Shown in pieces: positions 3,963 through 57,337 of a stretch of DNA of 64,000 bases. Under the pieces are notes generated by a model. It saw only the letters and a list, made by a program, of their open reading frames with translations, searched no databases and was not told the origin of the DNA. Position 1 is the first letter of the stretch. Every line of letters starts with the position of its first letter. Source of the DNA: Escherichia phage vB_EcoM_Lh1B; the sequence record OK428535.1; one strand, given 5' to 3'. The position numbers and the translations under genes were made by a program.

Positions 3963-6131
3963 ATGTCCTACACTCCTGATTTAGTGGCGACCNTGATTCG
4001 GTCGCTCAACCGTAAAAACGCGGTCGCCAAAGCAGTAGACCCCGCTAACGTTCGCCTGGTGTCCGTGGAGCATCGTGACGAAAAAACCCTAGACGTCACA
4101 CTGACAGGGGGTCCGGGGTATTCAAGTTACGGTCAAATTACGGCCCAAGTGACGAAGCAAAATATTGCTGATTATTTCGCTAAGGTTAAGTTGGATGCCA
4201 TTCCCACCTGTGCATCCATCCACGAGCTGTTGCCGCATTTAGACACTCTACTAGGGATTACCTTTTTAACCGACGACTTTGAAGACCTGCCTATCACTTG
4301 GACAAACAATGCTGCGCGCATCACGTTCCAGGCGAAACAGACAAGTCTTATCTGGTACGGCAGCCAAACGCTAGATGTGATAAACGGTGACGTGGATATC
4401 AACACTGTCTACACTGTTACCAATATCATTCTCACGCTAAAGGCTGCGAATAAACAGCAGTGGATTAACTTCTACTCTAATGCAGCCAAACGGATCGTGG
4501 ATCTTGATAAAGTCGATGTCAGCGCCCCGATGTCCCCGGAGGATATAGGCCAAACCTCTGCGTATAACAGCGTCGTGGCTTTGACCGCTAGACCGGGGAG
4601 CGGGATGTTTGGAACGAAGTATGTGTTCTTCTCACGTAACAAACTCGAGACATATGCAGGCAAAACCACATACGTCCCGGATGATTTCACCGGTAGCCTG
4701 CACGATGCTCTGGCCATCGAGACACTCGGCATTCGGAGCGTTTTTGATGTAAACGAAATTGCTCCTGTAGAGAACCTGGCAGGCGAGTGGCCGAGACAAG
4801 TGCAATTGGCACCCGTAGAGGGTTCGTACAAAGTCATGGGCAGCGCCACGTTGAATGTGGCACGCTATCAAGATAACGAGCAAACCCTTAACCTGAACTA
4901 CACAACTACGTCGCAAGTTTCGGACAGCTACTGGGCCACGACGTTGACCAACCATGCGGCGTGCGGGCGTTTGTTTNTTAACGTGACCGTAGANGNGGGG
5001 GNTTTNGTTTTTCGCNCCAACAACCTAAAACCGACGTTCGTTATCGACGAATTGCCGCAAATTGGCGAGGTGGTTTGGAACTTCGTTAACCGGGGAACCA
5101 TTCTTGGTCGNGGTGGTTCGGGTATGGTCTATTCTCTGCCTGCGAACACATCAGCAGACGGAGCTGACGCAATCCACATTACCGATACCTTCCGCGGCAA
5201 AGTCACCATCGAAAACTACGGCACCATCGCCGGAGGTGGGGGTGGGGGCGACTACTATGCGTTTACCACCNCCAAGNTCGGTGGAGCTGGTGGTGCGCCT
5301 CTCGGGCCAGGCGCGGCGGTACCCAGCGGCACCAATAACCGTAACGGCTTAGCTGGGTCCCGTGACAAAGGCGGTGCTACCCAGTTAGTCGTCGCACAAT
5401 TTACCGGCTACCAGAGTCGCNACTATGGCGGTCCTGGTGGCGATTGGGGCCAGCCGGGACGATATACAGCGTTCGAGCAATGGAACACCCCGGCTACCGG
5501 CTCGCCGGTCTATGTCTACGGTCGTGAAGACGGGATGTCATGGACTCGCCCTGGGATGGCAGGCGAAGCCGTCGGTGGGAATAAAAGTATCGTCAACNGG
5601 GTATCCNTCGNAACGGGGAAACCNAATTTCACCNACGAGTACCAANAGTTCCNCNNCNACCNCNCAGATTTAGATNCCAACCGATTGGCCAGTGCGGATG
5701 GGATAGATAAAGTCACCGACCCAACCAAACCTGTAGTTGTGGAGTTCTTAGGTACGATTATTTCAGGTACGCTNTTCAAAAAGCAAAACATACCCGGCGG
5801 TTTGGTGGGAACACCATACGGCGATGCTGTAGCCAACTTACCGAGCACCACATTGTTTGGTATCATGGCACACTGTGTATCGGAGTTTGATATTGTGCAC
5901 GACACTTGGCGTTACAACCGTGCGGTAATGTTCACCCTAAAACCCNCNCCTACCGGGGCGATTGGCCTCGCTGTGGAACGCAACCGGGTGAAATCGGCTA
6001 CCAGTAGTACACCGGTGGAGAGGTTCTATGTCGATCGCTTCGTGTATTACGATGCGTATCTCGGTAAAATGATGGAATGTAATCCGTATACCAAATCTGC
6101 CCCTAAACCGTGGGTGCGGCCAACGATATGA
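3963..6131 (+). CDS. putative tail fibre protein with Gly-rich repeats
   Basis: 722-aa ORF with poly-Gly/GGxGG stretches (GGGGGGDYY..GGAGGAPLGPGA) typical of fibre shafts; shares its C-terminal module with CDS 2629-3948; contains n-runs. Confidence 0.65.
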   Translation: MSYTPDLVATXIRSLNRKNAVAKAVDPANVRLVSVEHRDEKTLDVTLTGGPGYSSYGQITAQVTKQNIADYFAKVKLDAIPTCASIHELLPHLDTLLGITFLTDDFEDLPITWTNNAARITFQAKQTSLIWYGSQTLDVINGDVDINTVYTVTNIILTLKAANKQQWINFYSNAAKRIVDLDKVDVSAPMSPEDIGQTSAYNSVVALTARPGSGMFGTKYVFFSRNKLETYAGKTTYVPDDFTGSLHDALAIETLGIRSVFDVNEIAPVENLAGEWPRQVQLAPVEGSYKVMGSATLNVARYQDNEQTLNLNYTTTSQVSDSYWATTLTNHAACGRLFXNVTVXXGXXVFRXNNLKPTFVIDELPQIGEVVWNFVNRGTILGXGGSGMVYSLPANTSADGADAIHITDTFRGKVTIENYGTIAGGGGGGDYYAFTTXKXGGAGGAPLGPGAAVPSGTNNRNGLAGSRDKGGATQLVVAQFTGYQSRXYGGPGGDWGQPGRYTAFEQWNTPATGSPVYVYGREDGMSWTRPGMAGEAVGGNKSIVNXVSXXTGKXNFTXEYQXFXXXXXDLDXNRLASADGIDKVTDPTKPVVVEFLGTIISGTXFKKQNIPGGLVGTPYGDAVANLPSTTLFGIMAHCVSEFDIVHDTWRYNRAVMFTLKPXPTGAIGLAVERNRVKSATSSTPVERFYVDRFVYYDAYLGKMMECNPYTKSAPKPWVRPTI

Positions 6132-6190
6132 TTATCGTAATTTAACGNGGAACTTGNCGGGTTTAAANCCNGAANANAACCCNNNCCCNN

Positions 6191-6218
6191 TTCCCCNCGG
6201 GGAAGNGGNTTTNTTTTT
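6191..6218 (+). terminator. probable terminator (low-quality sequence)
   Basis: ttcccc-n-cggggaa hairpin followed by a T-run, inside an n-rich patch. Confidence 0.3.
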
Positions 6219-6836
6219 ATGACCCTATCAACTCAGGAGGTTATCGTGGTCGATCGTTGGAGTAAAGAGGGCATTATTCGTGCCAAAGTAAACATCGAAG
6301 CCGGTTACGTTAATAACCCGAAAGATTTGGGCAAAGCAACGAACCGCGGTGTCACCGAACTCACTGCGCGAGAATATGGCTATAAAGGGGATATGCGTGA
6401 CCTGAGCTTAGAAATCGCGTTAGACATTTACAACAAGCTCTGGTGGCAGCGGATGCGTTTAGACCAGATTATGAAAATGAATGTCCTGCTAGCTGACCGA
6501 ATGTTTGATTTCGGCATCAACGCAGGACGCGGTAACTGTATCAAGTCCCTGCAACGTATTCTGAACGTATTAAACCGCCAGGGTAAACTATACGATGATA
6601 TCGATGCCGATGGTGGTATCGGGCCACGTACGTTAACAGCGTTAGAAGGCTTCATCAAAGCCCGTGGGGAAGAGGGCCTGAATCGACTGATGTTCGCTTT
6701 AACCTGTCATCAGGTTGCGTATTACACGGAAATCAGTGAAGGGCGTGAGGATAACGAAGAGTTTACTTACGGCTGGTATGGCCGCGTCTATCAGGAAATG
6801 CCAGACTACGTGGCTAAGTTGGGGATGTGCAAATGA
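6219..6836 (+). CDS. endolysin: GH108-type N-acetylmuramidase with PG_binding_3 domain
   Basis: N-terminal EAGYVNNPKDLGKATNRGVTE matches the GH108 EGGYvnDP..GG.T..GIT signature; C-terminal DADGGIGPRTLTAL matches the PG_binding_3 DG.iGp.T..AL motif; no signal peptide or TM segment. Confidence 0.8.
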   Translation: MTLSTQEVIVVDRWSKEGIIRAKVNIEAGYVNNPKDLGKATNRGVTELTAREYGYKGDMRDLSLEIALDIYNKLWWQRMRLDQIMKMNVLLADRMFDFGINAGRGNCIKSLQRILNVLNRQGKLYDDIDADGGIGPRTLTALEGFIKARGEEGLNRLMFALTCHQVAYYTEISEGREDNEEFTYGWYGRVYQEMPDYVAKLGMCK

Positions 6837-7024
6837 AACAGAATTGGTTTGCTGCCTTAATGAAAGCTATCTGGCGCGCCCTTGTTTTTGCCNNAAGGAG
6901 AAAACGAAATGACCCACCGTCCAACTCCGCCTAAGTTCCCCGAAGTACAAACCGTTCCGGAAACGTATTACGATTCTGGGTTCTTCAAACTATTACGCGC
7001 GATCTTCTGTCGGAGGGTAAAGCC

Positions 7025-7117
7025 ATGCAATACGACAACGACGACTGGCCGAAAGGCTTAATGCCCATTTTACTGGGATTAATGGTCCTCACGATGCTCG
7101 TGCGTTATATGACGTGA
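7025..7117 (+). CDS. tiny single-TM peptide (30 aa)
   Basis: ATG preceded by GGAGGG; MQYDNDDWPKGLMPILLGLMVLTMLVRYMT has one hydrophobic helix; below the ORF-track length cut-off. Confidence 0.3.
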   Translation: MQYDNDDWPKGLMPILLGLMVLTMLVRYMT

Positions 7118-7124
7118 GGTCAGT

Positions 7125-7766
7125 ATGGAAGCACTTAAGTATAAGTTGTTAGAGAAGCCGTGGTTTATCCTCACGGATGATTTCCATTTCGAGTTTACGT
7201 TGCGCAGCCTCTATCGTGAGCACACCGGAATGGATGCGATGGTAGCATTAACAGGTGTACACCCGGATACTCCGTTATGGGTAACGGTACCGAAAGGATT
7301 TGTAACGGACCTGGCAAGCATTCCAGAAGCGNTNCNNCCTATCCTNCNNCCGGANGGGCCTTGGGCCGCNGCCNCTTGTGTGCATGATTTGTTTTACCAG
7401 AAACGTTCATCGGGGGTCTTGTACCCTGACACTGTCGAAGGTAATCTATCTCGTGCATGTGACAAAACATTCGCTGACCTGATGTTCTTACGTATCATGG
7501 AGGCATTAGGCGTTGACACCTTTATTCGTAAGTCCTTCTACCATGCCGTTCACGAGTTTGGTTGGCCGTCCTATGTAGACGATAACTCTAAGGTGGTTTA
7601 TAGCCGGCCGGTAGAAAAGACGTTGTCCTATAATCGCAACTACCTGTTCTTTAGAACGTCGCGTACGTTAGCGATTCCTGAACACGAACGTGTTGACATT
7701 ACTAATGGGCAACCGGTAAACGTGCAGTATTTGAATATCAAACGTGCGTTCCTGACTACCCCTTAA
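7125..7766 (+). CDS. hypothetical protein (DUF1353-like motif?)
   Basis: 213-aa ORF with GAGG RBS; motif VTDLASIP...CVHDLFY resembles the DUF1353 signature from memory. Confidence 0.55.
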   Translation: MEALKYKLLEKPWFILTDDFHFEFTLRSLYREHTGMDAMVALTGVHPDTPLWVTVPKGFVTDLASIPEAXXPIXXPXGPWAXAXCVHDLFYQKRSSGVLYPDTVEGNLSRACDKTFADLMFLRIMEALGVDTFIRKSFYHAVHEFGWPSYVDDNSKVVYSRPVEKTLSYNRNYLFFRTSRTLAIPEHERVDITNGQPVNVQYLNIKRAFLTTP

Positions 7767-29552: not shown

Positions 29553-30815
29553 ATGACTACTGCTTATCAAGTGCGGGCCGACAGCGCTTTTGGCTTCTCT
29601 CGAGACACCCGAACTTGGGGAACCATCGATGTCACGCAGCCCTTAAATACCCTTTGTGCTAACTACCACTTTTTCGAAGTAGGACTAGAAGCACTAGGTG
29701 CTGAATACACCTTCTATAGCCAGTATCACCTGGCTGATTTACAAAACCGTACGGACACGTTGCAAGATTGGTTAAACACCAANNCAGGAACCCCGATTCC
29801 CACGCTTGGGAAGGGCCTNCCGAANCTCNAATTNNTTGNGGCANATTACCAGTCTATTAATGCAGATGTGCCCGTAGAAACGCACCTGTGCCCTCCTGGG
29901 TACCACTACACTCAGGACTTCAATCCTGATGATGCACACGACGTTGTTGTAGTCTGCGACGATGAGTGGAAAGAGAAATACCGTACTGGGGTACTGTACA
30001 ACATCAACGGTCAATGGGTACCGCACCAATCTGACCCAGTGGGTGTTCGCTTAACCGGCGCTGGTAACATCGTGCGGAGAGCCAACACACCCNACANCGG
30101 CNGTCTAGTGATGGCGAATATTGGTAAAGTGAAGACTTACCCCATATCCGGTTTAACGATGAACAAACTCGATACTACGCGAGATTACTATTCTTCGTTA
30201 ATGTTGACCTTACCCGATTCCATTACAGGGAAAACCGTTGGGTTCGTCATCGGGGGTATTCTGCATTGGTTGCCACCGCAGGGCTATTTCAGCGACCGTG
30301 CGATTATGCTGAGTCTGCCAAACCTTAGCGTGGCGAAGATTGTATTGGAAACCCGTCGCTATTACGATTGGGACGCCATCGGTGTAGGTGATTTAAGTAC
30401 GCCTACGTCCGTTCAACGTATTCGTAACTCAGAAACGTTAAAAGCGTTGCTGACGCACGAATCCTCGTTTATCTTTACGATAGACAACCCGTATCTCGAA
30501 AAAGAGATTCACGGAATAAGCCACAACGCTATCTGGGGCCGGTTCTATTTAAAAGACCCGACTGACCCAGATGGGAAGAAGACGCTAGGTCCTATCTTTA
30601 ACCGTATTGGTAAATGTGTAGGGTACTGGCCGACCTGGGAAGAAGGGGAGTGGGTCTTTAATACCACATTCTTCGACCGGGAAAACTTTTTNTTGGGGAA
30701 CGCACGTTGGTNTAACCAGAATTTGGNAAANGACNCNCAGGNAATNGNNGGGCCTTTCGGGGNTTGGGGTAAGCCGTTTNTTGAAATGCATCGCTACAAA
30801 GNAAGAAAAAAATAA
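29553..30815 (+). CDS. hypothetical protein
   Basis: 420-aa ORF with GAGGAA RBS, divergent from the fibre operon; n-rich at the 3' end. Confidence 0.55.
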   Translation: MTTAYQVRADSAFGFSRDTRTWGTIDVTQPLNTLCANYHFFEVGLEALGAEYTFYSQYHLADLQNRTDTLQDWLNTXXGTPIPTLGKGXPXLXXXXAXYQSINADVPVETHLCPPGYHYTQDFNPDDAHDVVVVCDDEWKEKYRTGVLYNINGQWVPHQSDPVGVRLTGAGNIVRRANTPXXGXLVMANIGKVKTYPISGLTMNKLDTTRDYYSSLMLTLPDSITGKTVGFVIGGILHWLPPQGYFSDRAIMLSLPNLSVAKIVLETRRYYDWDAIGVGDLSTPTSVQRIRNSETLKALLTHESSFIFTIDNPYLEKEIHGISHNAIWGRFYLKDPTDPDGKKTLGPIFNRIGKCVGYWPTWEEGEWVFNTTFFDRENFXLGNARWXNQNLXXDXQXXXGPFGXWGKPFXEMHRYKXRKK

Positions 30816-30823
30816 AAGGTAAA

Positions 30824-30846
30824 CCCTACTCCCAATGGGAGNAGGG
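30824..30846. terminator. bidirectional rho-independent terminator
   Basis: CCCTACTCCC-aat-GGGAGnAGGG hairpin with A-rich and T-rich flanks. Confidence 0.55.
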
Positions 30847-30877
30847 NACCTATATNTTTTTTTTGCCNGNNGGCCGA

Positions 30878-31087
30878 TTACGCGTTTACNTAATANATGG
30901 CGTTGCCGAACATTTTGTTGTTGCCGCCACAAGCGGTAACTTTAAATGCTACGCCGCCTTCAGCTTCGGCTTTCTTAGCCAGCGCTTCGGTAACTTCGGT
31001 AACGGTGCTCAGTCCAGAAACCTGAACGGTGCCTGCTTCTACCAGACCAGAAACGTCGCTGCCTGCGGTGATTTCACGAATGCTCAT
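30878..31087 (-). CDS. small protein with YdgH/BhsA/McbA (DUF1471)-like domain, no signal peptide
   Basis: 69 aa with GGAGA RBS; GTVQVSGLSTVTEVTEALAKKAEAEGGVAFKVTACGGNNKMFGNA.Y fits the DUF1471 pattern as recalled. Confidence 0.45.
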   Translation of the reverse strand: MSIREITAGSDVSGLVEAGTVQVSGLSTVTEVTEALAKKAEAEGGVAFKVTACGGNNKMFGNAXYXVNA

Positions 31088-45635: not shown

Positions 45636-46358
45636 ATGTTTCNCACCATTTTATTTCTTCTGGTAGCAGTGACCACATTCAACAGCAACGCTTCTTACCA
45701 GACCACCAGTAACAAACACCAAAAAGAATTCGTCCTTATCCAGGACCAGTTCAATGAGATTAAACCTCTCATCGTCACCGCATCTCGAAAACAAGGCGTA
45801 CATGCCGGGATGCTCGCGACCACCATTTATCGTGAATCCCGTTTTAATAAAAACGTGGGTAAGAATAAATCGAGCAGTGCTAGTAGTGTTGTCCAAATGA
45901 CGACAGGCACTAAACGCTCCATGATACGTCTGTATGGGAAACAACTTAACATCCCAAAGAATGCGGACCTTAATAAACCGAAGTATGCTGTACAGCTTGC
46001 TGCCGTTTACATGAAACACATCGAGGATCATCTGACAAAACAACTCAAACGCAAGCCGAGCACAGCCGAAATCGCTTTAGGCTATCGCTTCGGTGAGGGT
46101 GCCGCTGTTGCGATGATTAAAAAGAAATCACCGGTCGGGAAACGCTGGATGGCNNGCNACNGAAAAGACGCAGCATTCTACGGTGCGAAAATGACACCAC
46201 CGAAAGNTGAAANACNNCNGNTTNNNTTTGNGNAGGNAGNCCANGNCCAACGNGTCGCCGAACTTCAGAAAATCTGGGATACGCTGTACACCAAAATATC
46301 ACCTGCGGCCGGTACATTACTGGCAAATAACACTATCATGAAAGGAGCATTGCTATGA
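45636..46358 (+). CDS. SLT-domain lytic transglycosylase-like protein with N-terminal signal peptide
   Basis: Hydrophobic N-terminus; YRESRFNKNVG...SSASSVVQMTTGT...YAVQLAAVYMKH...ALGYRFGEG matches the ES / Q-M / AYN-G motif order of SLT domains; n-rich C-terminal part. Confidence 0.5.
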   Translation: MFXTILFLLVAVTTFNSNASYQTTSNKHQKEFVLIQDQFNEIKPLIVTASRKQGVHAGMLATTIYRESRFNKNVGKNKSSSASSVVQMTTGTKRSMIRLYGKQLNIPKNADLNKPKYAVQLAAVYMKHIEDHLTKQLKRKPSTAEIALGYRFGEGAAVAMIKKKSPVGKRWMXXXXKDAAFYGAKMTPPKXEXXXXXFXXXXXXQXVAELQKIWDTLYTKISPAAGTLLANNTIMKGALL

Positions 46359-46948
46359 CACTCGTAACACGCCCCTGGTATCCAGGTCTTAAAACAGCCG
46401 NACAAATCACCGCCAAAGACGTTTACGAACTGATTCGCGCGGGTGCGGAACACGTTCAAACCAATCCGAACTACGTTGAGCGTCCTATCGGTGAAGTCGA
46501 TGGGGAAGCTGTCGAAGCACCTGTCTACGTTGAGTACGGCGAATGGTTCGCAGAGAACCACGGTTTCTACGACGCGTTAAACGCGGCGTTTGGTGATGAC
46601 GAAGACGAAGGTATCGAATTCGACTGGAACGTTAATCTGGCGCTGATGTGGATTTGTGGTTTACGTCCAGCAATTAACGAAACCGAAGCAGGCTTCGTGC
46701 TGACGTGGCGACAGTCGGCGGGTTACGATAAAGAACTCGACTTCAAACAGGCGTATATGGATGTGTCGATTGCACTGCAGAAACTGTTCTTCGGCGATCG
46801 TGCTTTCTGCCAGCTCAGCTGGTTGACCATCCTGGAAAAACTGGCAACGTGCCACAAACTGTGGCGAGCAGAAGATGCCCCAGAACATCTTTTCGTGCTC
46901 GAATATGCAGTGGTACCGAACCAGCCGTTCTTTGAGGCCGAAGCGTAA
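46355..46948 (+). CDS. hypothetical protein
   Basis: 197-aa ORF, ATGA overlap with the upstream gene. Confidence 0.55.
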   Translation: MTLVTRPWYPGLKTAXQITAKDVYELIRAGAEHVQTNPNYVERPIGEVDGEAVEAPVYVEYGEWFAENHGFYDALNAAFGDDEDEGIEFDWNVNLALMWICGLRPAINETEAGFVLTWRQSAGYDKELDFKQAYMDVSIALQKLFFGDRAFCQLSWLTILEKLATCHKLWRAEDAPEHLFVLEYAVVPNQPFFEAEA

Positions 46949-50549: not shown

Positions 50550-51065
50550 GTGAGCATGATAGCATCAGTTTTCAAACTGCTTCCATTCTTACAAATGCTG
50601 TGGGAAGCATTTAAACCGGGCGAGGGGGAGAAAGTAACACGAGCCGGGAAAATAGTGACACTAGTGATAGTGGCACTGATCGCGTTCTCTGCATTTGTCT
50701 CATACGCCTACATTGTTCAATACCACACACTGGTTAGCGTTCAATCGCGTACTCAGTATCTGGAGATATCCTATAAGGAGCTAAAAGAGAAGTCCGATCA
50801 TGGCGAAGTGGAGAACAATAAGTTGTACGATCGTCTCTTCACGTGCCTGGGTTCTCGACCGCCATATGATGGTACCAAATCTCCAACAGGAACAGGCACT
50901 GAGGCCGCGGTTCCGCCTGTANAAANCAANCCNGTAANNCCNCCGGCNCCGTTNAATCCNTCTANCCCNCCNNCCAAGAAATACCNGGCCNCTTCTCNCC
51001 CGGTAGGGTCGCAGGAGGCAAATGATTTCCGACAGGAGATTATCAGTACGCTTAATAATCCATGA
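50550..51065 (+). CDS. membrane protein with periplasmic coiled coil (i-spanin candidate)
   Basis: TM segment IVTLVIVALIAFSAFVSYAYIV followed by charged helical region (ISYKELKEKSDHGEVENNKLYDRL); n-rich C-terminus. Confidence 0.4.
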   Translation: MSMIASVFKLLPFLQMLWEAFKPGEGEKVTRAGKIVTLVIVALIAFSAFVSYAYIVQYHTLVSVQSRTQYLEISYKELKEKSDHGEVENNKLYDRLFTCLGSRPPYDGTKSPTGTGTEAAVPPVXXXXVXXPXPXNXSXXXXKKYXAXSXPVGSQEANDFRQEIISTLNNP

Positions 51066-51074
51066 GGAGCATAC

Positions 51075-51554
51075 ATGAAGTTATTTTTGGTGGCGATACT
51101 GGTGCTATTGTTGACAGGATGCCCTGGAGCCATCCGTCACGTAGACCCAGATTACTCCTCAACCGGAGATTGGCCTTTTCGTCCTTTAGAACACCCACCA
51201 GTTTATGCTGGTGGGAACAGTCCTGAGGCGAAAAAGCTGGCAGGGAAAATGTTTGTTGCGGATGTGAACGCTTATGCTTATTACGTTTATCTGTACGCTA
51301 AGTCGTTGAACAATTACGCAGAAGCTAAGGGGTGGCGCACCCCGATGGCCGCACCGCTTTGTGAAGAGTTTATTCGCCCCACTCTTCATGATATACCCTC
51401 CGGGATATATCTCGACCCTGGTTCTCGTAGCCCTCAAGACATTAGTCGTGATTTGTCACGACAGATTAAGTCNCTCATTCGCAGCTATCGCGAAGACAGA
51501 GAGTCTTTTAATCATGCCTACGAACGGCACAAAAGTAGTTGCCTTGTGCAATGA
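51075..51554 (+). CDS. lipoprotein (o-spanin candidate)
   Basis: MKLFLVAILVLLLTGC lipobox immediately downstream of the membrane protein. Confidence 0.55.
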   Translation: MKLFLVAILVLLLTGCPGAIRHVDPDYSSTGDWPFRPLEHPPVYAGGNSPEAKKLAGKMFVADVNAYAYYVYLYAKSLNNYAEAKGWRTPMAAPLCEEFIRPTLHDIPSGIYLDPGSRSPQDISRDLSRQIKXLIRSYREDRESFNHAYERHKSSCLVQ

Positions 51555-51560
51555 AAACTC

Positions 51561-51597
51561 CCTCTTACCTTCGGGTAAGAGGGGATTTCCTTTTTTA
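51561..51597 (+). terminator. rho-independent terminator
   Basis: CCTCTTACC-ttcg-GGTAAGAGG hairpin followed by a T-run. Confidence 0.6.
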
Positions 51598-51642: not shown

Positions 51643-52362
51643 ATGACATATCCTAAAATTCTGCCTGTTTTAACGCCCACCGTTGTTGTTGGGACGGACT
51701 TAGAGACCCTGGCTTTACGTCCAGATGCCTACATCTTAACGTTGGCAAACGTGGCATTCGATGTTCCGACAATGAAAATGATCGGTTCATGTTACCACAA
51801 AATCGACCCCAATGATGCAAAAGCAAAAGAAATCTTCTACATCGATCCACAAACGGTCGGTTATTGGGAAGGTAAAGGCGACCCCGAATACGCACCGAGC
51901 GAGAAAGCACGTATTGAAGCGTTTTCTGGGACCACTCCACTGCCAGAAGCACTGTGGGCGGCCAAAAAATGGTTGGATGATCTGGGCAACGTGAAAATGG
52001 TTATCACCATGCGCGGTCCCGATTTCGATGCTCCAATTCTGATGAACGCATTCGCGCAGTGCGATATCCCGCCGGGCAAGTACCGCAAGTTTTCTATATT
52101 GGACTCTGACCGGACTGCAGAACGTATTGCATATGCGTTTGGCCTGGAACCGAACTGGCACGCAGAAGCGCACCATTGGACCCGTGGCAAAGAAGCGTAC
52201 GAGCATAACGCTAGCTTCGATGCTGCGAAGGAAGCGTATTCTACGGCACGCATCTATCATTTGGCCCTGGTCGCGCGTACGTACGGCTTCGAACGCATGT
52301 TAGAAGCCCACCGCGAAATGTGCACAGGTGAATACATTCCACCGCAGTTGCGAGGAGAATAA
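51643..52362 (+). CDS. DEDD-family (DnaQ-like) 3'-5' exonuclease
   Basis: Exo I motif VVGTDLETLALRP (DxE) near the N-terminus; Exo III-like H..S.DA (HNASFDA) near the C-terminus. Confidence 0.5.
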   Translation: MTYPKILPVLTPTVVVGTDLETLALRPDAYILTLANVAFDVPTMKMIGSCYHKIDPNDAKAKEIFYIDPQTVGYWEGKGDPEYAPSEKARIEAFSGTTPLPEALWAAKKWLDDLGNVKMVITMRGPDFDAPILMNAFAQCDIPPGKYRKFSILDSDRTAERIAYAFGLEPNWHAEAHHWTRGKEAYEHNASFDAAKEAYSTARIYHLALVARTYGFERMLEAHREMCTGEYIPPQLRGE

Positions 52363-53876
52363 TGAAAGACGTCGACGTAGCGGTTATTTATACCGATGGT
52401 AGTCATACTGAGTCCCCGAAAGGTTCGGGGGCTGGTATTCATGGTTATTTATTCAACAACGGAGATTTGGAAGACAGTCAGGCTTATAGCCATCCGGGTG
52501 TTTCANAANGGATTACCACTGTTGGATANAAAAAAGNGCCGCAGGNTGNGAAGTGTCCGGNGTTGCCGGACACCGTTNAATTTNTNGACGCCGTTNTTCC
52601 CGTTCCNAAANAGTTNTNCNCAGATGTGGGNGNGTTAATCNCCTTCATCACGTTNTTTGAGAACGCGCCCTTCCGCGCGAAGAACTATATCATCTACGTG
52701 GATGCCAGTTACGTTGTAAACACTTTTAACGAGTGGATAGACGGCTGGCATAAACGTGGTTGGGTTCGTGCTGACGGTACTCCGCTGGCGAACAAAGAAC
52801 TTATTGTTCGTATCTGGGAAATCAAACAGCAGATGAAAAAAGAAGGACGGGGTGTTAAGGTTATCAAAATCAAAGGACACTCCGGCCACTACGGTAACGA
52901 CCGGGCGGACGAATTGGCTAGAAAAGGTTCAGCCATCACAGCGACCAACGACGGCGTTCCATATCAGCCGTACTGGTCGAAGGATGAGTTGCCTGCATCC
53001 GCGGAACCCGAGCCCATCGCCGCTGGGATGAACCTTGCGGCATATCCGCCTATTTGTACGGTTAAATATTGCTATCCGTTGGTGAACGAGGACCATCCTA
53101 CTGTAAAAGTGAAAGATGAAACTTTCTATTACATGTTTGGTGGCAACCATGCAAAGAACAAGGACGACTTGGTGTTTATTGGGAAAATGATTCCTGATGC
53201 ACACTTTTCCGTAATGTTCACTAAACAACCGTGGGATAACATCTACACGATTGTAAATACCCACGCCGCCCTGGCATGGAAAGATACACCGAAGATGCGG
53301 CAGTATGATCCAATCGGTGTTGTTAACAATGAGTTCGTTAAACGTAAGAAGTTCGTTGATGTGGCAGGTGATGGATTACCGGCAGACAAGATGCATTTCA
53401 GTGGAGAAGATTCCAATGTCTGGTTCTTTGAAGACCTGGCCATCTCCAGAATGCTTCGCCCGCCCTTATTGTCGTACCGTGCGCTGGATATTCGTGATGA
53501 ACTCGCTACAACGTTGCGAGATGTTCTGCATCAGGAAAAGGGTTACGTCTTAAACGACATTACCGACTTGCTATTCGACGACAAAGGTAAACCTGTCAAG
53601 GAATACTACCGTAGCGTCGATAAGTCAATAACGTTAAAGATTGACTTTCCGATGGGTAAACGACCTGTCTCGGTTATTTTGACTCGCGGTATCGATATTC
53701 CATCACGTACGGAAATCAACCGTATTAAAGAACCCGAAGGCCGTTATTACATCGCGGTGTGTCGTCCTGAAAAATACTACATCCGTTACTTCTTAATCTA
53801 TATCGGTAAAGAGTATCATGGGTTGTGGTGTGCGTATTACGCAAACCGTCGCATACTGCGAGAAGAAGAGGTGTAA
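52362..53876 (+). CDS. RNase H-domain protein with about 300-aa C-terminal extension
   Basis: IYTDGS ... NEWIDGWHKRGW ... KGHSGHYGNDRADELARKG match the RNase HI catalytic signature; ATGA overlap with the exonuclease stop; n-run inside the domain. Confidence 0.6.
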   Translation: MKDVDVAVIYTDGSHTESPKGSGAGIHGYLFNNGDLEDSQAYSHPGVSXXITTVGXKKXPQXXKCPXLPDTVXFXDAVXPVXKXXXXDVXXLIXFITXFENAPFRAKNYIIYVDASYVVNTFNEWIDGWHKRGWVRADGTPLANKELIVRIWEIKQQMKKEGRGVKVIKIKGHSGHYGNDRADELARKGSAITATNDGVPYQPYWSKDELPASAEPEPIAAGMNLAAYPPICTVKYCYPLVNEDHPTVKVKDETFYYMFGGNHAKNKDDLVFIGKMIPDAHFSVMFTKQPWDNIYTIVNTHAALAWKDTPKMRQYDPIGVVNNEFVKRKKFVDVAGDGLPADKMHFSGEDSNVWFFEDLAISRMLRPPLLSYRALDIRDELATTLRDVLHQEKGYVLNDITDLLFDDKGKPVKEYYRSVDKSITLKIDFPMGKRPVSVILTRGIDIPSRTEINRIKEPEGRYYIAVCRPEKYYIRYFLIYIGKEYHGLWCAYYANRRILREEEV

Positions 53877-53877
53877 C

Positions 53878-54618
53878 ATGTTGCGAGTCGTGAGTGAATC
53901 GCTCACGCTCCACACACAAAGTCTGATTAACTGTGTGGAGCAATACGGATGGATGTCGTGGATGGCAACGAACCGTGAGTTTGGTGCTGCGCCCATGGAA
54001 GATTACGACGTGTTGTACAAGTGGGGATTTGAAGCGGCTTGTGATGTTGTGGCAGAGCTGGTTACCGAAACAATTGCGCGTTACAACGCAAGATGTGATG
54101 AACCGATGCCTAAACAAGTCCCGCCGCAAATACCTCCGCTACCGACAATCGATCGTGAGCATTGTCGAATCTGGACAATGGAAGAGTTGTACGACGAACA
54201 CGTTAGAATGCTGAAACCGAACGAGCTAATAACCGGTGCGTTGAACTGGTTCTTACATCGTTTCTGGACAGAGTTGGTCGATGTGGCGGGTGACGAAGAT
54301 AATTGTTCTCAGGTTATTTGGTACGATCGAGCGATGTTTCATCGCAGTCTTAAAGATCGTAGTCTCTGCAACCTGTATATTGTTGACCCGTGTGAAGACA
54401 TTGTAAAGGTTGCAGAAGGTAACTCTTATTCCGACTTGGTGATGCCCGTGGTAGAAAAACCGATGGGTATTTTCCTGCAGGGNGACGNTTGGGTTTTAAC
54501 GGATGATATCTCGGGCTACCTGCTGGACCCGGATGACATTCACTCGGACGAACCTGATACCATCGAGTATTTTCACTTTACAGAACAGGCAGCACGCTTC
54601 TTGCATCTCTTAAAGTAA
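53878..54618 (+). CDS. hypothetical protein
   Basis: ATG at 53878; N-terminus MLRVVSESL is paralogous to that of CDS 55802-56209. Confidence 0.5.
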   Translation: MLRVVSESLTLHTQSLINCVEQYGWMSWMATNREFGAAPMEDYDVLYKWGFEAACDVVAELVTETIARYNARCDEPMPKQVPPQIPPLPTIDREHCRIWTMEELYDEHVRMLKPNELITGALNWFLHRFWTELVDVAGDEDNCSQVIWYDRAMFHRSLKDRSLCNLYIVDPCEDIVKVAEGNSYSDLVMPVVEKPMGIFLQXDXWVLTDDISGYLLDPDDIHSDEPDTIEYFHFTEQAARFLHLLK

Positions 54619-54619
54619 T

Positions 54620-54640
54620 CTGAGATAGATATTATCTACA
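54620..54640 (+). promoter_or_regulatory. recurring intergenic motif (candidate promoter element)
   Basis: CTGAGATAGATATTATCTACA, preceded by TTGCAT at 54601. Confidence 0.3.
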
Positions 54641-54671
54641 GGGACGTAACCTTAAGGAGAATTTATTCACG

Positions 54672-55406
54672 ATGCTTAAAGTCGAAGTGCCAGTGCTTTT
54701 AAACCTCACGCCCCAGTTCTTTGAAGCGTTGTTCGAAAAGCATTGGCCCGCGTTCGCGAAGAACGAACTAAAGGATAACCCACAGTGGTATCCACTGCGC
54801 GATGAATTCAAGTACACAGCCATCAACGTCTGTATAGAAGTCTTCACTGCGTGGTTACAAGAGATGTACGACTGCATCAACACCGAACGGTTGTTCACGC
54901 TAGAACATGTAGAGATTAATGTTGTTGACGTCTACGAAGGTTACACCTACGAAGAAGGCATTACTGCCACGGGGTTAAGCCAACAAGACGTTGAAGAACA
55001 AATCTTTGCGTGGATCGAGTGGTTCACGGAAAAGTTGATGCTGGCTGATTTTGTCACGCAGGTGGAAGATGTATTCATCCCAATGTACGAGCGGTTAGCT
55101 GAGATACGTCGTAACCATCGTCTGCTCGGTTACTGGTATGACACTTATACCACCTCCTCAACATTGTGGTCTTCCGCTACTGCCGCATTTGGCATAACTG
55201 AAGGCGATTACGATGTCATTCATTCCGGCCCTTGGCAGTATGGTTTCGGCACCCTGTGGCACGAGCTGACCGATGCCATGTGCCTGGACTTTTATCTGTG
55301 TGGAGGTAAGTTTTACACGGATAACTGCGTGAGCCAAATTCCGAATGGTGCGATGGTGGTGATGTGTCGCATCCGTAAAGAAGTCGCTGAGAAACTAAAC
55401 TACTGA
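54672..55406 (+). CDS. hypothetical protein
   Basis: 244-aa ORF with AAGGAG RBS. Confidence 0.55.
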   Translation: MLKVEVPVLLNLTPQFFEALFEKHWPAFAKNELKDNPQWYPLRDEFKYTAINVCIEVFTAWLQEMYDCINTERLFTLEHVEINVVDVYEGYTYEEGITATGLSQQDVEEQIFAWIEWFTEKLMLADFVTQVEDVFIPMYERLAEIRRNHRLLGYWYDTYTTSSTLWSSATAAFGITEGDYDVIHSGPWQYGFGTLWHELTDAMCLDFYLCGGKFYTDNCVSQIPNGAMVVMCRIRKEVAEKLNY

Positions 55407-55419
55407 AGGAGTATTTAAA

Positions 55420-55791
55420 ATGACGCAAGACGAATTTGAAACGATGGTAAAACAGTATTACAAAGAAGGGACTATTCTGTACATAGTCGCACCCGAGAGC
55501 GAAAACTGGTTGACGTTATCGTCGCGGGTAACCACCCTACGCGGCCCAGTTTCTCAAGAAATAAGACAGATGGCTCGTATAGTTCGAGATACCGCCATCC
55601 AGGGCGGTAAAGTCGTCAGCTTCTCCCACCTCTCTCCGATCGGCCACTCTAACTTAGAAACCGAAGTTGATGTCGTTGCTACTGTTGGTTTTGATTTAGA
55701 TGGCTCTCCAGGCTCGAACCTTGTCGTGATTAAGAAATGGCGTGGATACGATGCAATCCCATCGCCAGGGGTGTGGCCGGCAACCAACTAG
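55420..55791 (+). CDS. hypothetical protein
   Basis: 123-aa ORF with AAGGAG RBS. Confidence 0.5.
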   Translation: MTQDEFETMVKQYYKEGTILYIVAPESENWLTLSSRVTTLRGPVSQEIRQMARIVRDTAIQGGKVVSFSHLSPIGHSNLETEVDVVATVGFDLDGSPGSNLVVIKKWRGYDAIPSPGVWPATN

Positions 55792-55801
55792 AGGGGTCGC
55801 T

Positions 55802-56209
55802 ATGTTAAAGGTGTATAGCGAGTCATTGATGGACTTGCAAGAGTATCTAAAGCATGTGGAAATTAACGGCAACCGTGGAATGATATACTCCATGGTTGTC
55901 GAGATTTTAATTAAAATCGTGCTTGTTTCATTCCACGTAGCAGAAAATGGCACTGCTGTACCAGGAGATGTTTATAAAGGCGTTATTAAGCATCTTAGCG
56001 AGCGCTACAGTTGTTTACGTGAACCGGATATCTTTAATGAGGTGCAGCGTGTTGTGTTGCTTATCCTCGACAACCGTGAAGACTTGGCGTACAAGCTTGC
56101 GCATGAATTGGCAGACACGTCACAGCACGGTGGACAACTGAAATATAACGTTGTGGATCTCGTAGCGTGCAGATACTGGTATACGCAGCCCGAGGTAAGT
56201 AACTTTTAA
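55802..56209 (+). CDS. hypothetical protein
   Basis: ATG at 55802 with GAGGGG RBS; N-terminus MLKVYSESL. Confidence 0.5.
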   Translation: MLKVYSESLMDLQEYLKHVEINGNRGMIYSMVVEILIKIVLVSFHVAENGTAVPGDVYKGVIKHLSERYSCLREPDIFNEVQRVVLLILDNREDLAYKLAHELADTSQHGGQLKYNVVDLVACRYWYTQPEVSNF

Positions 56210-56219
56210 GGAGCATTAG

Positions 56220-56759
56220 ATGCAAATCGTAATTGACTTCGCTCTGTCGGAGTCGAGACGTCAGCTAGATGAAATTCTGTTAGGATTAAAACGTGACGTG
56301 GAATTTGAACTTCACGATGCGTTGGCCGTCCACGAAAATCGTTTGTCTGACGAAATAGGTTCGGGTGTAGATGTGGCTATCTGTGACACTGGGGATATGG
56401 TAAATCAGCTTATTGAACGTATGTTCACGCGGCTGCGTAACATTCTGAACTATCCCCATCGTTTTGAACTGGTAGAAGGGACGGACCAAATCACCGACTT
56501 ATTGAGTGAAGCCTTTGATAAGGTTGGTGAATCTCTGGCGGGGTTACATCAAGAGAACCTGGGCGAGACATATGTTGCTGTGGTCATTAACGGGCAAACG
56601 TCGAACGTTACGGATACGGTAACATGGTCCGATATCGTTGACCAGCCAATCATTGACAAAATCACCAAGCTGTATCNTGAGGCGGAGATGAAGGTGCTGG
56701 CTATCTGTCGTCGCGAACTGCTCTATCTCGGCGAGAAATATGGGAAACCTGTTGAATGA
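56220..56759 (+). CDS. hypothetical protein
   Basis: 179-aa ORF with AAGGAG RBS. Confidence 0.55.
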   Translation: MQIVIDFALSESRRQLDEILLGLKRDVEFELHDALAVHENRLSDEIGSGVDVAICDTGDMVNQLIERMFTRLRNILNYPHRFELVEGTDQITDLLSEAFDKVGESLAGLHQENLGETYVAVVINGQTSNVTDTVTWSDIVDQPIIDKITKLYXEAEMKVLAICRRELLYLGEKYGKPVE

Positions 56760-57298
56760 AAATATTCATTGATTTACTCGATGACGAATTTCGTGAAATA
56801 TTTCCAGCGGCGTTGTTCGAGTTTAAGCGTAAGTGTGAAGACTATCTGATACCGAAGAATATCGATCGTCAACACCTCGCTGGACTTATCTCTGCGGCGT
56901 ACGTCAATATCGCGGTAAATGAAGTTCATCAACTCGCGCAACGTATTGCGTGTTTCGAATACAACGACGAAGACATTGAAGACGGCTTCCTGCAGTCTAA
57001 GATGGGTCGCTTCTCACTCGAACTCAAGACCGATGAGGTTATTGATAAGGTCGGTAAAGCCTTTGATGAAATGAAGGACATCGAAATGATGATTAAGATG
57101 TCTGGACCGGAAGCAGGCCCATTGAAAGAAGCGTGGGAACATCTCAACCGCGACGAGTATAAAGAGATGTACATGGGTGAGTTCACCACCATGCTACGTC
57201 ACCTCGAAGCACAGGTCTGGGAGCATATCGTTTCACGTCTGAAAGAAATACTGATTGTGATTGAGCCAATGCAGCCACTCGCTATTAGTAAATTCTAG
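56756..57298 (+). CDS. hypothetical protein
   Basis: 180-aa ORF, ATGA overlap. Confidence 0.55.
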   Translation: MKIFIDLLDDEFREIFPAALFEFKRKCEDYLIPKNIDRQHLAGLISAAYVNIAVNEVHQLAQRIACFEYNDEDIEDGFLQSKMGRFSLELKTDEVIDKVGKAFDEMKDIEMMIKMSGPEAGPLKEAWEHLNRDEYKEMYMGEFTTMLRHLEAQVWEHIVSRLKEILIVIEPMQPLAISKF

Positions 57299-57302
57299 TT
57301 AA

Positions 57303-57337
57303 ACGGACACTCTTCGGGGTGTCCGTAGTTTTATTTT
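57303..57337 (+). terminator. rho-independent terminator
   Basis: ACGGACAC ... GTGTCCGT hairpin followed by AGTTTTATTTT. Confidence 0.55.

Follow-up and report, generated by a model that had tools for sequence, protein, structure and literature searches.

Rhc (RNase H-clamp) of a SPN3US-type Escherichia jumbo phage and the DEDDh exonuclease gene that overlaps it

The genome of Escherichia phage vB_EcoM_Lh1B (sequence record OK428535.1) includes, within the stretch of 64,000 nucleotides analyzed here and referred to as the window, two co-oriented genes that occupy exactly positions 51643 to 53876. The first codes for a 239-amino acid protein related to exonucleases, and the second for a 504-amino acid protein that starts with an RNase H domain. 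Is this pair a module for removing primers or processing RNA-DNA hybrids that carries an unusual accessory domain, as the initial annotation suggested, or does it belong to another part of the replication machinery? Comparisons of sequences and models identify the 504-amino acid protein, with high confidence, as the SPN3US-lineage version of Rhc (RNase H-clamp), and it is very probable that this protein, gp207, is a DNA-binding subunit derived from a clamp, associated with the polymerase and carrying a tethered RNase H. The features that define the pair are as follows.

51643..52362, plus strand: gene for the DEDDh 3'-5' exonuclease, 239 amino acids, identified by PF16473, phrog_255, the catalytic motifs and its counterpart SPN3US_0206.
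51697-51699 (D19), 51703-51705 (E21), 52027-52029 (D129), 52204-52206 (H188) and 52219-52221 (D193), plus strand: catalytic codons of the exonuclease, from the motif alignment.
52352..52364, plus strand: probable translational-coupling junction between exonuclease and Rhc, with a GAGGAG Shine-Dalgarno sequence (52352-52357) inside the 3' end of the exonuclease gene followed by TAATG.
52362..53876, plus strand: gene for Rhc, 504 amino acids, the counterpart of SPN3US_0207 and orthologue of phiKZ gp155 (also known as Nlp2) and Goslar gp190.
52362..52964, plus strand: RNase HI domain, amino acids 1 to about 201, supported by PF00075, phmmer, the catalytic alignment and the full-length model.
52395-52397 (D12), 52632-52634 (E91), 52701-52703 (D114), 52878-52880 (H173) and 52908-52910 (D183), plus strand: catalytic codons of the RNase HI domain, from the alignment.
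52455..52577, plus strand: insertion of about 40 residues (amino acids about 32-72) between β2 and β3 of the RNase H fold, modelled with a predicted local distance difference test (pLDDT) score of about 90.
52506..52655, no strand: stretch with 20 N bases and 17 X codons (amino acids 49-98), a feature of data quality and not of biology.
52989..53006, plus strand: flexible interdomain linker, amino acids about 210-215, pLDDT below 50.
53007..53873, plus strand: sliding-clamp-derived domain, amino acids 216-504, with the basic DNA-contact residues K235, K265 and K329 and the polymerase-interface residues L370, Y372 and I498.

The window has about 98% identity to SPN3US, a jumbo phage of Salmonella, and the 2.2-kb span shares 97.4-98.4% identity with about 30 SPN3US-type jumbo phages of Salmonella, Proteus and Escherichia (Seoulvirus). 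The open reading frame (ORF) listing of the window places both genes where they had been described, at 51643-52362 and 52362-53876, each beginning with ATG. The 239-amino acid gene is SPN3US_0206 (YP_009153500), named "putative endodeoxyribonuclease" in GenBank and "3'-5' exoribonuclease" in RefSeq, and the 504-amino acid gene is SPN3US_0207 (YP_009153501), annotated as "putative ribonuclease H". At the junction, gaggagaaTAATGaaa, the stop codon of the exonuclease gene (TAA, 52360-52362) and the start codon of Rhc (ATG, 52362-52364) have one base in common, and the GAGGAG ribosome-binding site lies 4 nucleotides upstream. The overlap is thus of 1 nucleotide and has the form TAATG rather than the ATGA described in the initial annotation, the TGA of which is a second in-frame stop after the TAA. 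Both genes are probably co-transcribed and translationally coupled.

Residues 105-190 of Rhc matched the PF00075 RNase_H profile with 72.7 bits (cut-off 25.8), while a homologue free of N bases (P0001) scored 78.4 bits. Phmmer comparison with the structures of the E. coli, Thermus and human RNase H1 enzymes gave E values from 3e-13 to 1e-11. The amino acids D12, E91, D114, D183 and H173 correspond to D10, E48, D70, D134 and H124 of the E. coli enzyme, and the RNase HI motifs first noticed in the N-terminal portion are real, with the reservation that E91 reads as X in this record and is encoded by GAG in SPN3US. D114 matches the residue replaced in the published catalytic mutants phiKZ D102N and Goslar D119N. 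The complete D/E/D/H/D set was found in 15 of the 16 Rhc sequences compared, the catalytic Asp is invariant across a 52-sequence alignment, and a basic-protrusion segment, WIDGWHKRGWVRADGTPLAN, is also present. The insertion of about 40 residues is real and independent of the N bases: D12 and E91 are 79 residues apart, as opposed to 38 between D10 and E48 in E. coli RNase HI, and the same β2-β3 insertion is found in Goslar Rhc and, in a shorter form, in that of phiKZ. In the NCBIfam comparison the score against the bacterial RnhA equivalog NF001236 was 70.4 bits, far under the cut-off of 160, and Rhc is consequently best described as an RNase HI-domain protein and not as an RnhA equivalog. The window protein would be expected to cleave RNA:DNA hybrids.

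The remainder of the protein is a domain in its own right. The full-length AlphaFold model (mean pLDDT 89.5) shows two domains with a disordered linker (residues 210-215) between them. Structure prediction, which the initial annotation had proposed for the C-terminal domain, was carried out on residues 216-504 of the window's own sequence, and it returned a clamp-like fold with a pLDDT of 90.7 and a predicted template modelling score (pTM) of 0.89. The best structural matches are ring clamps, namely 9-1-1, PCNA, gp45 and beta. Matches to PCNA in a Foldseek comparison with the PDB were only sub-significant (best E value 1.2e-3), a result that is consistent with a clamp and is not proof of one. 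On the strength of these models the C-terminal domain has a sliding-clamp-like fold, and by analogy with its orthologues it is filed as clamp-derived rather than as a canonical ring clamp of the PCNA, beta or gp45 kind, because Basu et al. reported the absence of the oligomerization elements and the presence of just one subunit in the cryo-electron microscopy (cryo-EM) structure. The initial annotation was right in recognizing an extra domain of about 300 amino acids, and less so in treating it as an unusual accessory of a nuclease, since it is by means of this domain that phiKZ gp155 and Goslar gp190 bind both the DNA polymerase and the product duplex and promote synthesis (PMC13648687, PMC13648698). 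Two BFVD entries, I1VX43 (233 amino acids) and G4KKB4 (247 amino acids), match the clamp domain alone (Foldseek E values 2e-10 and 2e-4, respectively); these might represent independent domains of clamp origin or else gene models that were cut short.

The Rhc gene contains 20 ambiguous N bases between 52506 and 52655, which give rise to 17 X codons at amino acids 49-98. It was these bases that had been misread as an n-rich insertion in the RNase H region; the segment is not rich in asparagine. One of them masks the codon of the catalytic Glu91 (gNg in the window, GAG in SPN3US). The whole window has 315 N bases in about 59 clusters, other examples of which are located at 1863-1968, 4977-6213, 30692-30896, 46154-46401 and 50922-50998. 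When compared with SPN3US the gene has no indel and the same length, and the N bases stand for ordinary G, C, A or T. Since they are spread over all three codon positions they look like poor or masked base calls and not like natural polymorphism. The idea that the clusters are hypervariable or diversity-generating sites was considered and rejected: all three codon positions are affected, 17 of the 20 N bases destroy a codon, and the differences on either side are synonymous. None of the 13 non-N substitutions in the Rhc gene alters an amino acid, which argues against a pseudogene, and the exonuclease gene differs from that of SPN3US by 17 substitutions, only one of which changes an amino acid (S191N). 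The lack of indels and the nearly complete restriction to synonymous changes indicate that both genes are intact and under purifying selection. Four N-bearing codons could in principle hide a stop (NAA twice, TAN and NAG); in SPN3US the codons at these sites are GAA, TAC, CAA and GAG, and they are sense codons in all close relatives. In the GenBank records of SPFM14, 7, 5, 9, 20, 12, 1, 8 and 10 (LR535912, LR535904, LR535903 and others) the exonuclease and Rhc are annotated as 4-5 fragmentary hypothetical proteins. These fragments look like the product of indel-rich assemblies and not like real gene splits, and they could mislead as to whether the 504-amino acid frame is a single one.

The relationship with the proteins characterized in other phages extends over the whole length of Rhc. 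It matched phrog_3265, 'ribonuclease', with an E value of 6e-178 over residues 1-504, and tblastn comparison with phiKZ-type phages produced full-length matches with 97% coverage, an E value of 1e-26 and about 24% identity. The copy in OMKO1 is 99% identical to PHIKZ155, and the Goslar protein is Goslar_00246, a locus tag that differs from the gp number used in the paper (gp190). In the 52-sequence alignment, phiKZ M346/Goslar L363, Goslar W365 and phiKZ I479/Goslar Y505, which are located at the polymerase interface, correspond to L370, Y372 and I498, so that a hydrophobic or aromatic residue is kept. The DNA-contact residues R233, K259 and R318 of Goslar correspond to K235, K265 and K329, all still basic. 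Three of five assembly positions and three of five DNA-contact positions thus keep their character, while the other two in each set differ or are located in poorly aligned loops. Full-length homologues of phiKZ gp50 (DNAP-C) are also encoded by SPN3US-type phages, outside the region that corresponds to the window (34% identity, E value about 1e-133), and SPN3US is listed among the phages with an experimentally shown nucleus.

Much is known about the orthologues. The phiKZ protein enters the phage nucleus via Imp1/PicA. Its knock-down by antisense stops nucleus maturation and genome amplification (PMC12571901). In vitro it behaves as a genuine RNase H, yet complementation by the D102N mutant is complete (PMC12571901), and the essential function of phiKZ Rhc is therefore independent of RNase H catalysis. 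Two preprints of October 2026 gave the protein the name Rhc (PMC13648687, PMC13648698). In phiKZ it is the transiently bound third subunit of a split B-family polymerase composed of gp82 and gp50; in the cryo-EM structure a single clamp domain of Rhc lies against the thumb and palm and holds the product duplex, and the protein makes the polymerase extend the primer instead of degrading it, an effect that does not require RNase H catalysis (PMC13648687). The authors likened it to UL42 of herpes simplex virus 1 (HSV-1), and it is without ring-forming elements (PMC13648687). Goslar gp190 has 508 amino acids and a domain boundary at 209/210; both its clamp and its RNase H activity aid replication, and it also supports late transcription, probably via R-loop resolution (PMC13648698). 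Earlier, Iyer et al. (2021) had pointed out that phages of this group have neither primase nor clamp and that an RNase H1 is always present. For the orthologues, then, others have demonstrated that the protein is essential, enters the nucleus, has RNase H activity, and binds and stimulates the polymerase, and by analogy the window protein most likely works as described for phiKZ and Goslar. The principal feature of the locus is already known, having been annotated since 2011 and characterized mechanistically in 2025-2026.

The protein encoded upstream of Rhc matched PF16473, the Rv2179c-like 3'-5' exoribonuclease domain of Pfam, with 35.5 bits (cut-off 27), and phrog_255, 'exonuclease', with an E value of 4e-53. 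The amino acids D19 and E21 (the DxE of motif Exo I), D129 within RGPDFD (Exo II) and H188-x4-D193 (Exo III) are invariant in the 30 homologues aligned, as is an SDRT block at amino acids 155-158, and the motif set is kept in 12 of 13 loci. The DnaQ-like DEDD assignment made at the outset is in this way upheld. A family profile found a sole match among solved structures, a weak one to RNase T across motifs II-III (E value 0.19), while phmmer comparison with solved structures produced no meaningful match and the NCBIfam search no match. The names given to this protein in databases are in conflict (endodeoxyribonuclease, exonuclease, 3'-5' exoribonuclease) and are all based on domain labels. As judged from its motifs, the 239-amino acid protein would be a DEDDh 3'-5' exonuclease with a functional active site, of the same type as Rv2179c and RNase T; a preference for RNA or DNA is not deducible from the sequence. 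The subfamily is a discrete one: an exhaustive HMMER search recovered 25 representatives at E values of 1e-30 or below, followed by a drop to generic PF16473 proteins.

The exonuclease gene is found directly upstream of an Rhc-type gene (504-598 amino acids) in 14 of 14 exonuclease-bearing genomes, which confirms the tight coupling proposed from the window, even where protein identity has fallen to 22-30%. This set comprises the window (SPN3US type), Derbicus, pEa_SNUABM_43, Cronobacter CR5, Vibrio pVp-JHP1101 and nine metagenomic contigs. The ORFs overlap by 1-50 nucleotides in 12 of the 13 loci with DNA compared, the window and SPN3US being counted separately, and are 1 nucleotide apart in the remaining one. 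The order of the block is constant: SLT transglycosylase, DUF7194 (minus strand), a virion protein of about 440 amino acids (minus strand), two small genes (plus strand), exonuclease (plus strand) and Rhc (plus strand). The exonuclease is confined to the SPN3US/Erwinia/Cronobacter/Vibrio branch; no such gene was found beside Rhc in phiKZ, Goslar or one metagenomic relative with 25% identity, and the 183-amino acid product of the gene upstream of Goslar Rhc has no significant similarity to the exonuclease or to the two small ORFs of the window. An exonuclease partner is mentioned in neither of the Rhc preprints (PMC13648687, PMC13648698).

Two loci deviate at their active sites. One of them (L017, positions 5942-7561, on the 200-kb contig k141_1277812 of European Nucleotide Archive (ENA) ERZ27295583) encodes a 539-amino acid Rhc homologue with a degenerate RNase H site, which has S-I-D-N-D at the D-E-D-H-D positions, YISSA for YTDGS and AIV for AEL, and has lost the His beside a 12-residue insertion. 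It has no PF00075 match on record, keeps the clamp markers and lies downstream of an intact DEDDh exonuclease gene. The other (L016, positions 5001-5690, ENA ERZ17807519 NODE_417) has a partner exonuclease of 229 amino acids with R-A-D-H-E at the D-E-D-H-D positions and SGHM for SDRT. This lineage is abundant (a cluster of 36 members, 258 index blocks), and the ORF is intact, ends 1 nucleotide before an intact Rhc gene, and codes for a protein with 34% identity to the SPN3US exonuclease, compared with 48% for Rhc. Taken together these variants indicate that each catalytic activity seems to be dispensable somewhere while the gene pair persists. They fit a clamp-centered core function for Rhc, and they hint that the role of the exonuclease may be partly structural. 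These natural catalytic-dead variants and the clade-specific coupling of exonuclease and Rhc are what the locus adds to existing knowledge.

The locus can then be considered the SPN3US-lineage copy of a replication module of chimalliviruses (nucleus-forming jumbo phages), centered on a protein whose N-terminal RNase HI domain is connected through a flexible linker to a C-terminal domain that descends from a DNA sliding clamp. From its homology to phiKZ gp155 and Goslar gp190, Rhc would be expected to enter the phage nucleus by import, where a monomer would dock by its clamp domain on the thumb and palm of the split B-family polymerase (DNAP-N plus DNAP-C) and hold the newly made duplex on its basic concave surface. 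Docking would move the polymerase away from exonucleolysis and towards synthesis, in a manner similar to that of herpesvirus UL42, and the tethered RNase H domain could cut template-annealed RNA, be it R-loops or primers. The most likely role of the exonuclease would be that of an auxiliary nuclease for 3' ends, produced together with Rhc, which could for instance trim the RNA fragments or 3' ends that RNase H leaves behind.

Several other explanations for the 504-amino acid protein have to be weighed. The four N-bearing codons and the SPFM records that split the Rhc gene into 4-5 ORFs might suggest that the frame is broken in this genome by a stop or an indel, in which case the fusion would be a pseudogene or two genes. 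Such an event is extremely improbable given the agreement with SPN3US in frame and length, the synonymous nature of all 13 resolved substitutions, the intact frame of about 500 amino acids in more than 20 related genomes and 45 homologues, and the alignment of the split SPFM records in as many as 34 pieces. That the domain acts as a true sliding clamp, forming a homotrimeric ring in the way of PCNA or gp45 instead of working as a monomeric DNA-binding subunit, would agree with the identity of the top structural matches, with a domain size (about 290 amino acids) equal to one two-domain PCNA-type protomer and with the fact that no other clamp or loader is known in these phages; considering the single subunit reported by Basu et al., we regard this arrangement as very unlikely. 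As for a dedicated primer-removal or RNA-DNA hybrid module, in which RNase H would nick the RNA, the DEDD exonuclease would degrade it and the C-terminal domain would be a mere accessory, it could explain why the RNase HI site is intact and so widely conserved, and it was for primer removal that Iyer et al. proposed this RNase H1. It would also agree with the cleavage of RNA:DNA hybrids by the orthologues in vitro, with the need for catalytic activity in Goslar for full replication and late transcription, and with the translational coupling to Rhc of an exonuclease whose family founder acts on RNA 3' overhangs. However, a catalytic-dead Rhc fully complements in phiKZ and the polymerase is stimulated by the clamp domain on its own, which places the conserved core function outside nuclease chemistry. 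In addition, the RNase H site of one natural Rhc (L017) is degenerate, these phages have no identified primase, primer removal is yet to be demonstrated, and the exonuclease is missing from phiKZ and Goslar. That explanation is therefore unlikely, and the part of the initial proposal that stands is hybrid processing (R-loops, template RNA) as a supported secondary role, the emphasis of that proposal being reversed.

What ties the exonuclease to RNA-DNA hybrid chemistry is gene linkage. The enzyme could be a fourth, lineage-specific part of the Rhc-DNA polymerase machine, held at a fixed ratio by translational coupling and acting in the phage nucleus, where its task might be to degrade fragments of RNA or to trim 3' ends once RNase H has cut; in this complete form the proposal is doubtful. 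A functional link of gp206 to Rhc of some kind is plausible, on a tentative footing. What weighs against it is that the block of about 10 genes is rigidly collinear in every genome examined, so that adjacency by itself is weak evidence, and that RAY gp64, a distant PF16473 relative, is encoded elsewhere and is cytoplasmic. A serious competitor, with a probability not far short of even, is a nuclease independent of Rhc, cytoplasmic or general in its action (nucleotide salvage from host RNA or DNA, RNA turnover, anti-defence), that is adjacent only by virtue of this synteny, in which the flanking genes take part. The retention of the block without the exonuclease in Goslar and the silence of both Rhc preprints are in agreement with such independence. 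On the other hand, in almost every lineage, at identities as low as 22-30%, the two ORFs overlap or abut, a tighter arrangement than synteny by itself would demand, the subfamily is found only directly upstream of Rhc (14 of 14 loci), and RAY gp64 is just a distant relative.

Other features of the surrounding region are located at the following positions.

51559..51597, plus strand: intrinsic-terminator-like hairpin with an 11-bp stem, a TTCG loop and a T-run (stem 51559-51584, tail ATTTCCTTTT), closing the upstream two-gene unit and followed by the start of the exonuclease-Rhc unit.
53878..57298, plus strand: six tightly packed co-oriented genes, SPN3US_0208-0213 (phrog_9472, 8219, 17265, 18239, 8379 and 9806).
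57303..57336, plus strand: terminator-like hairpin with a 10-bp stem and a T-run (hairpin 57303-57326), probably ending the eight-gene unit.

The two hairpins bracket eight genes, namely the exonuclease, Rhc and six genes of unknown function. No Pfam domain was found in the six genes 3' of Rhc, and all of their PHROGs are of unknown function; they are probably in one transcription unit with the exonuclease-Rhc pair. The sequence GTGATATATAATC, considered as a recurring promoter motif upstream of the exonuclease gene, occurs a single time with up to 2 mismatches allowed, which is no more than chance, and sigma-70-like sites are not enriched (7 found, 10.6 expected). A cold-shock-domain gene (PF00313) is located two or three genes downstream of Rhc in three distant syntenic loci (L012, L013 and L015).

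Upstream of the exonuclease gene two small genes on the plus strand (50550-51065 and 51075-51554) end at the strong terminator. They are SPN3US_0204 and SPN3US_0205, annotated as 'hypothetical', and belong to phrog_8719 and phrog_8165, of unknown function. In one of the products a hydrophobic segment at the N terminus precedes a coiled-coil-like region, and the other begins with MKLFLVAILVLLLTGC, a lipobox-like signal, so that in sequence they resemble an i-spanin/o-spanin-type pair. Both genes are kept in all syntenic loci; Goslar has instead one gene for a 183-amino acid protein with a transmembrane segment plus a coiled coil. Group I introns are annotated in Goslar beside or inside RNA-polymerase-like genes (L008, 19269-19645, and L014, 11817-12245), with an HNH/NUMOD gene adjacent, and are unrelated to the finding on Rhc.

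The proteins of this locus can be compared with several known systems. With E. coli RNase HI (RnhA) and human RNase H1, Rhc has in common the DEDD plus His active site and the basic-protrusion segment, and it differs from them in the extra residues between β2 and β3 and in the fused C-terminal domain of about 290 amino acids. Rv2179c is an RNase T-like enzyme that takes off 3' overhangs of double-stranded RNA, and the window exonuclease resembles enzymes of this DEDDh type by its Pfam match above threshold and by the DxE, D and Hx4D motifs. Unlike Rv2179c and RNase T, the phage proteins form a tight separate subfamily (about 30 clusters when grouped at 50% identity) that is restricted to the position upstream of Rhc in a single branch of chimalliviruses, and they have an extra conserved C-terminal helical segment and the SDRT block. 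Another PF16473 protein of a chimallivirus, the putative exonuclease gp64 of Erwinia phage RAY, is of similar size (about 250 amino acids) and localizes to the cytoplasm. It is only remotely related to the window exonuclease (hhalign probability 52%), and its gene (L020, 13674-14426) sits among nucleotide-metabolism genes away from Rhc; exonucleases of this family therefore occur in more than one genomic context within chimalliviruses.

Sliding clamps and clamp-derived factors (9-1-1, PCNA, T4-type gp45, Pol III beta, UL42/UL44/PF-8) have no detectable sequence similarity to Rhc and low structural scores, and the Rhc domain differs from them in being fused to a nuclease. In contrast to the ring clamps, the Rhc orthologue forms no ring and binds the polymerase only transiently. 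The closest known systems are phiKZ gp155 and Goslar gp190, which resemble the window protein in length (482-508 as compared with 504 amino acids), in a domain boundary near residue 210, in the D/E/D/H/D set, in the β2-β3 insertion, in the clamp-like C-terminal fold and in homology over the full length. Identity to them is only 24-26%, and while the phiKZ and Goslar genes stand without an upstream DEDDh exonuclease gene, that of the window overlaps one.

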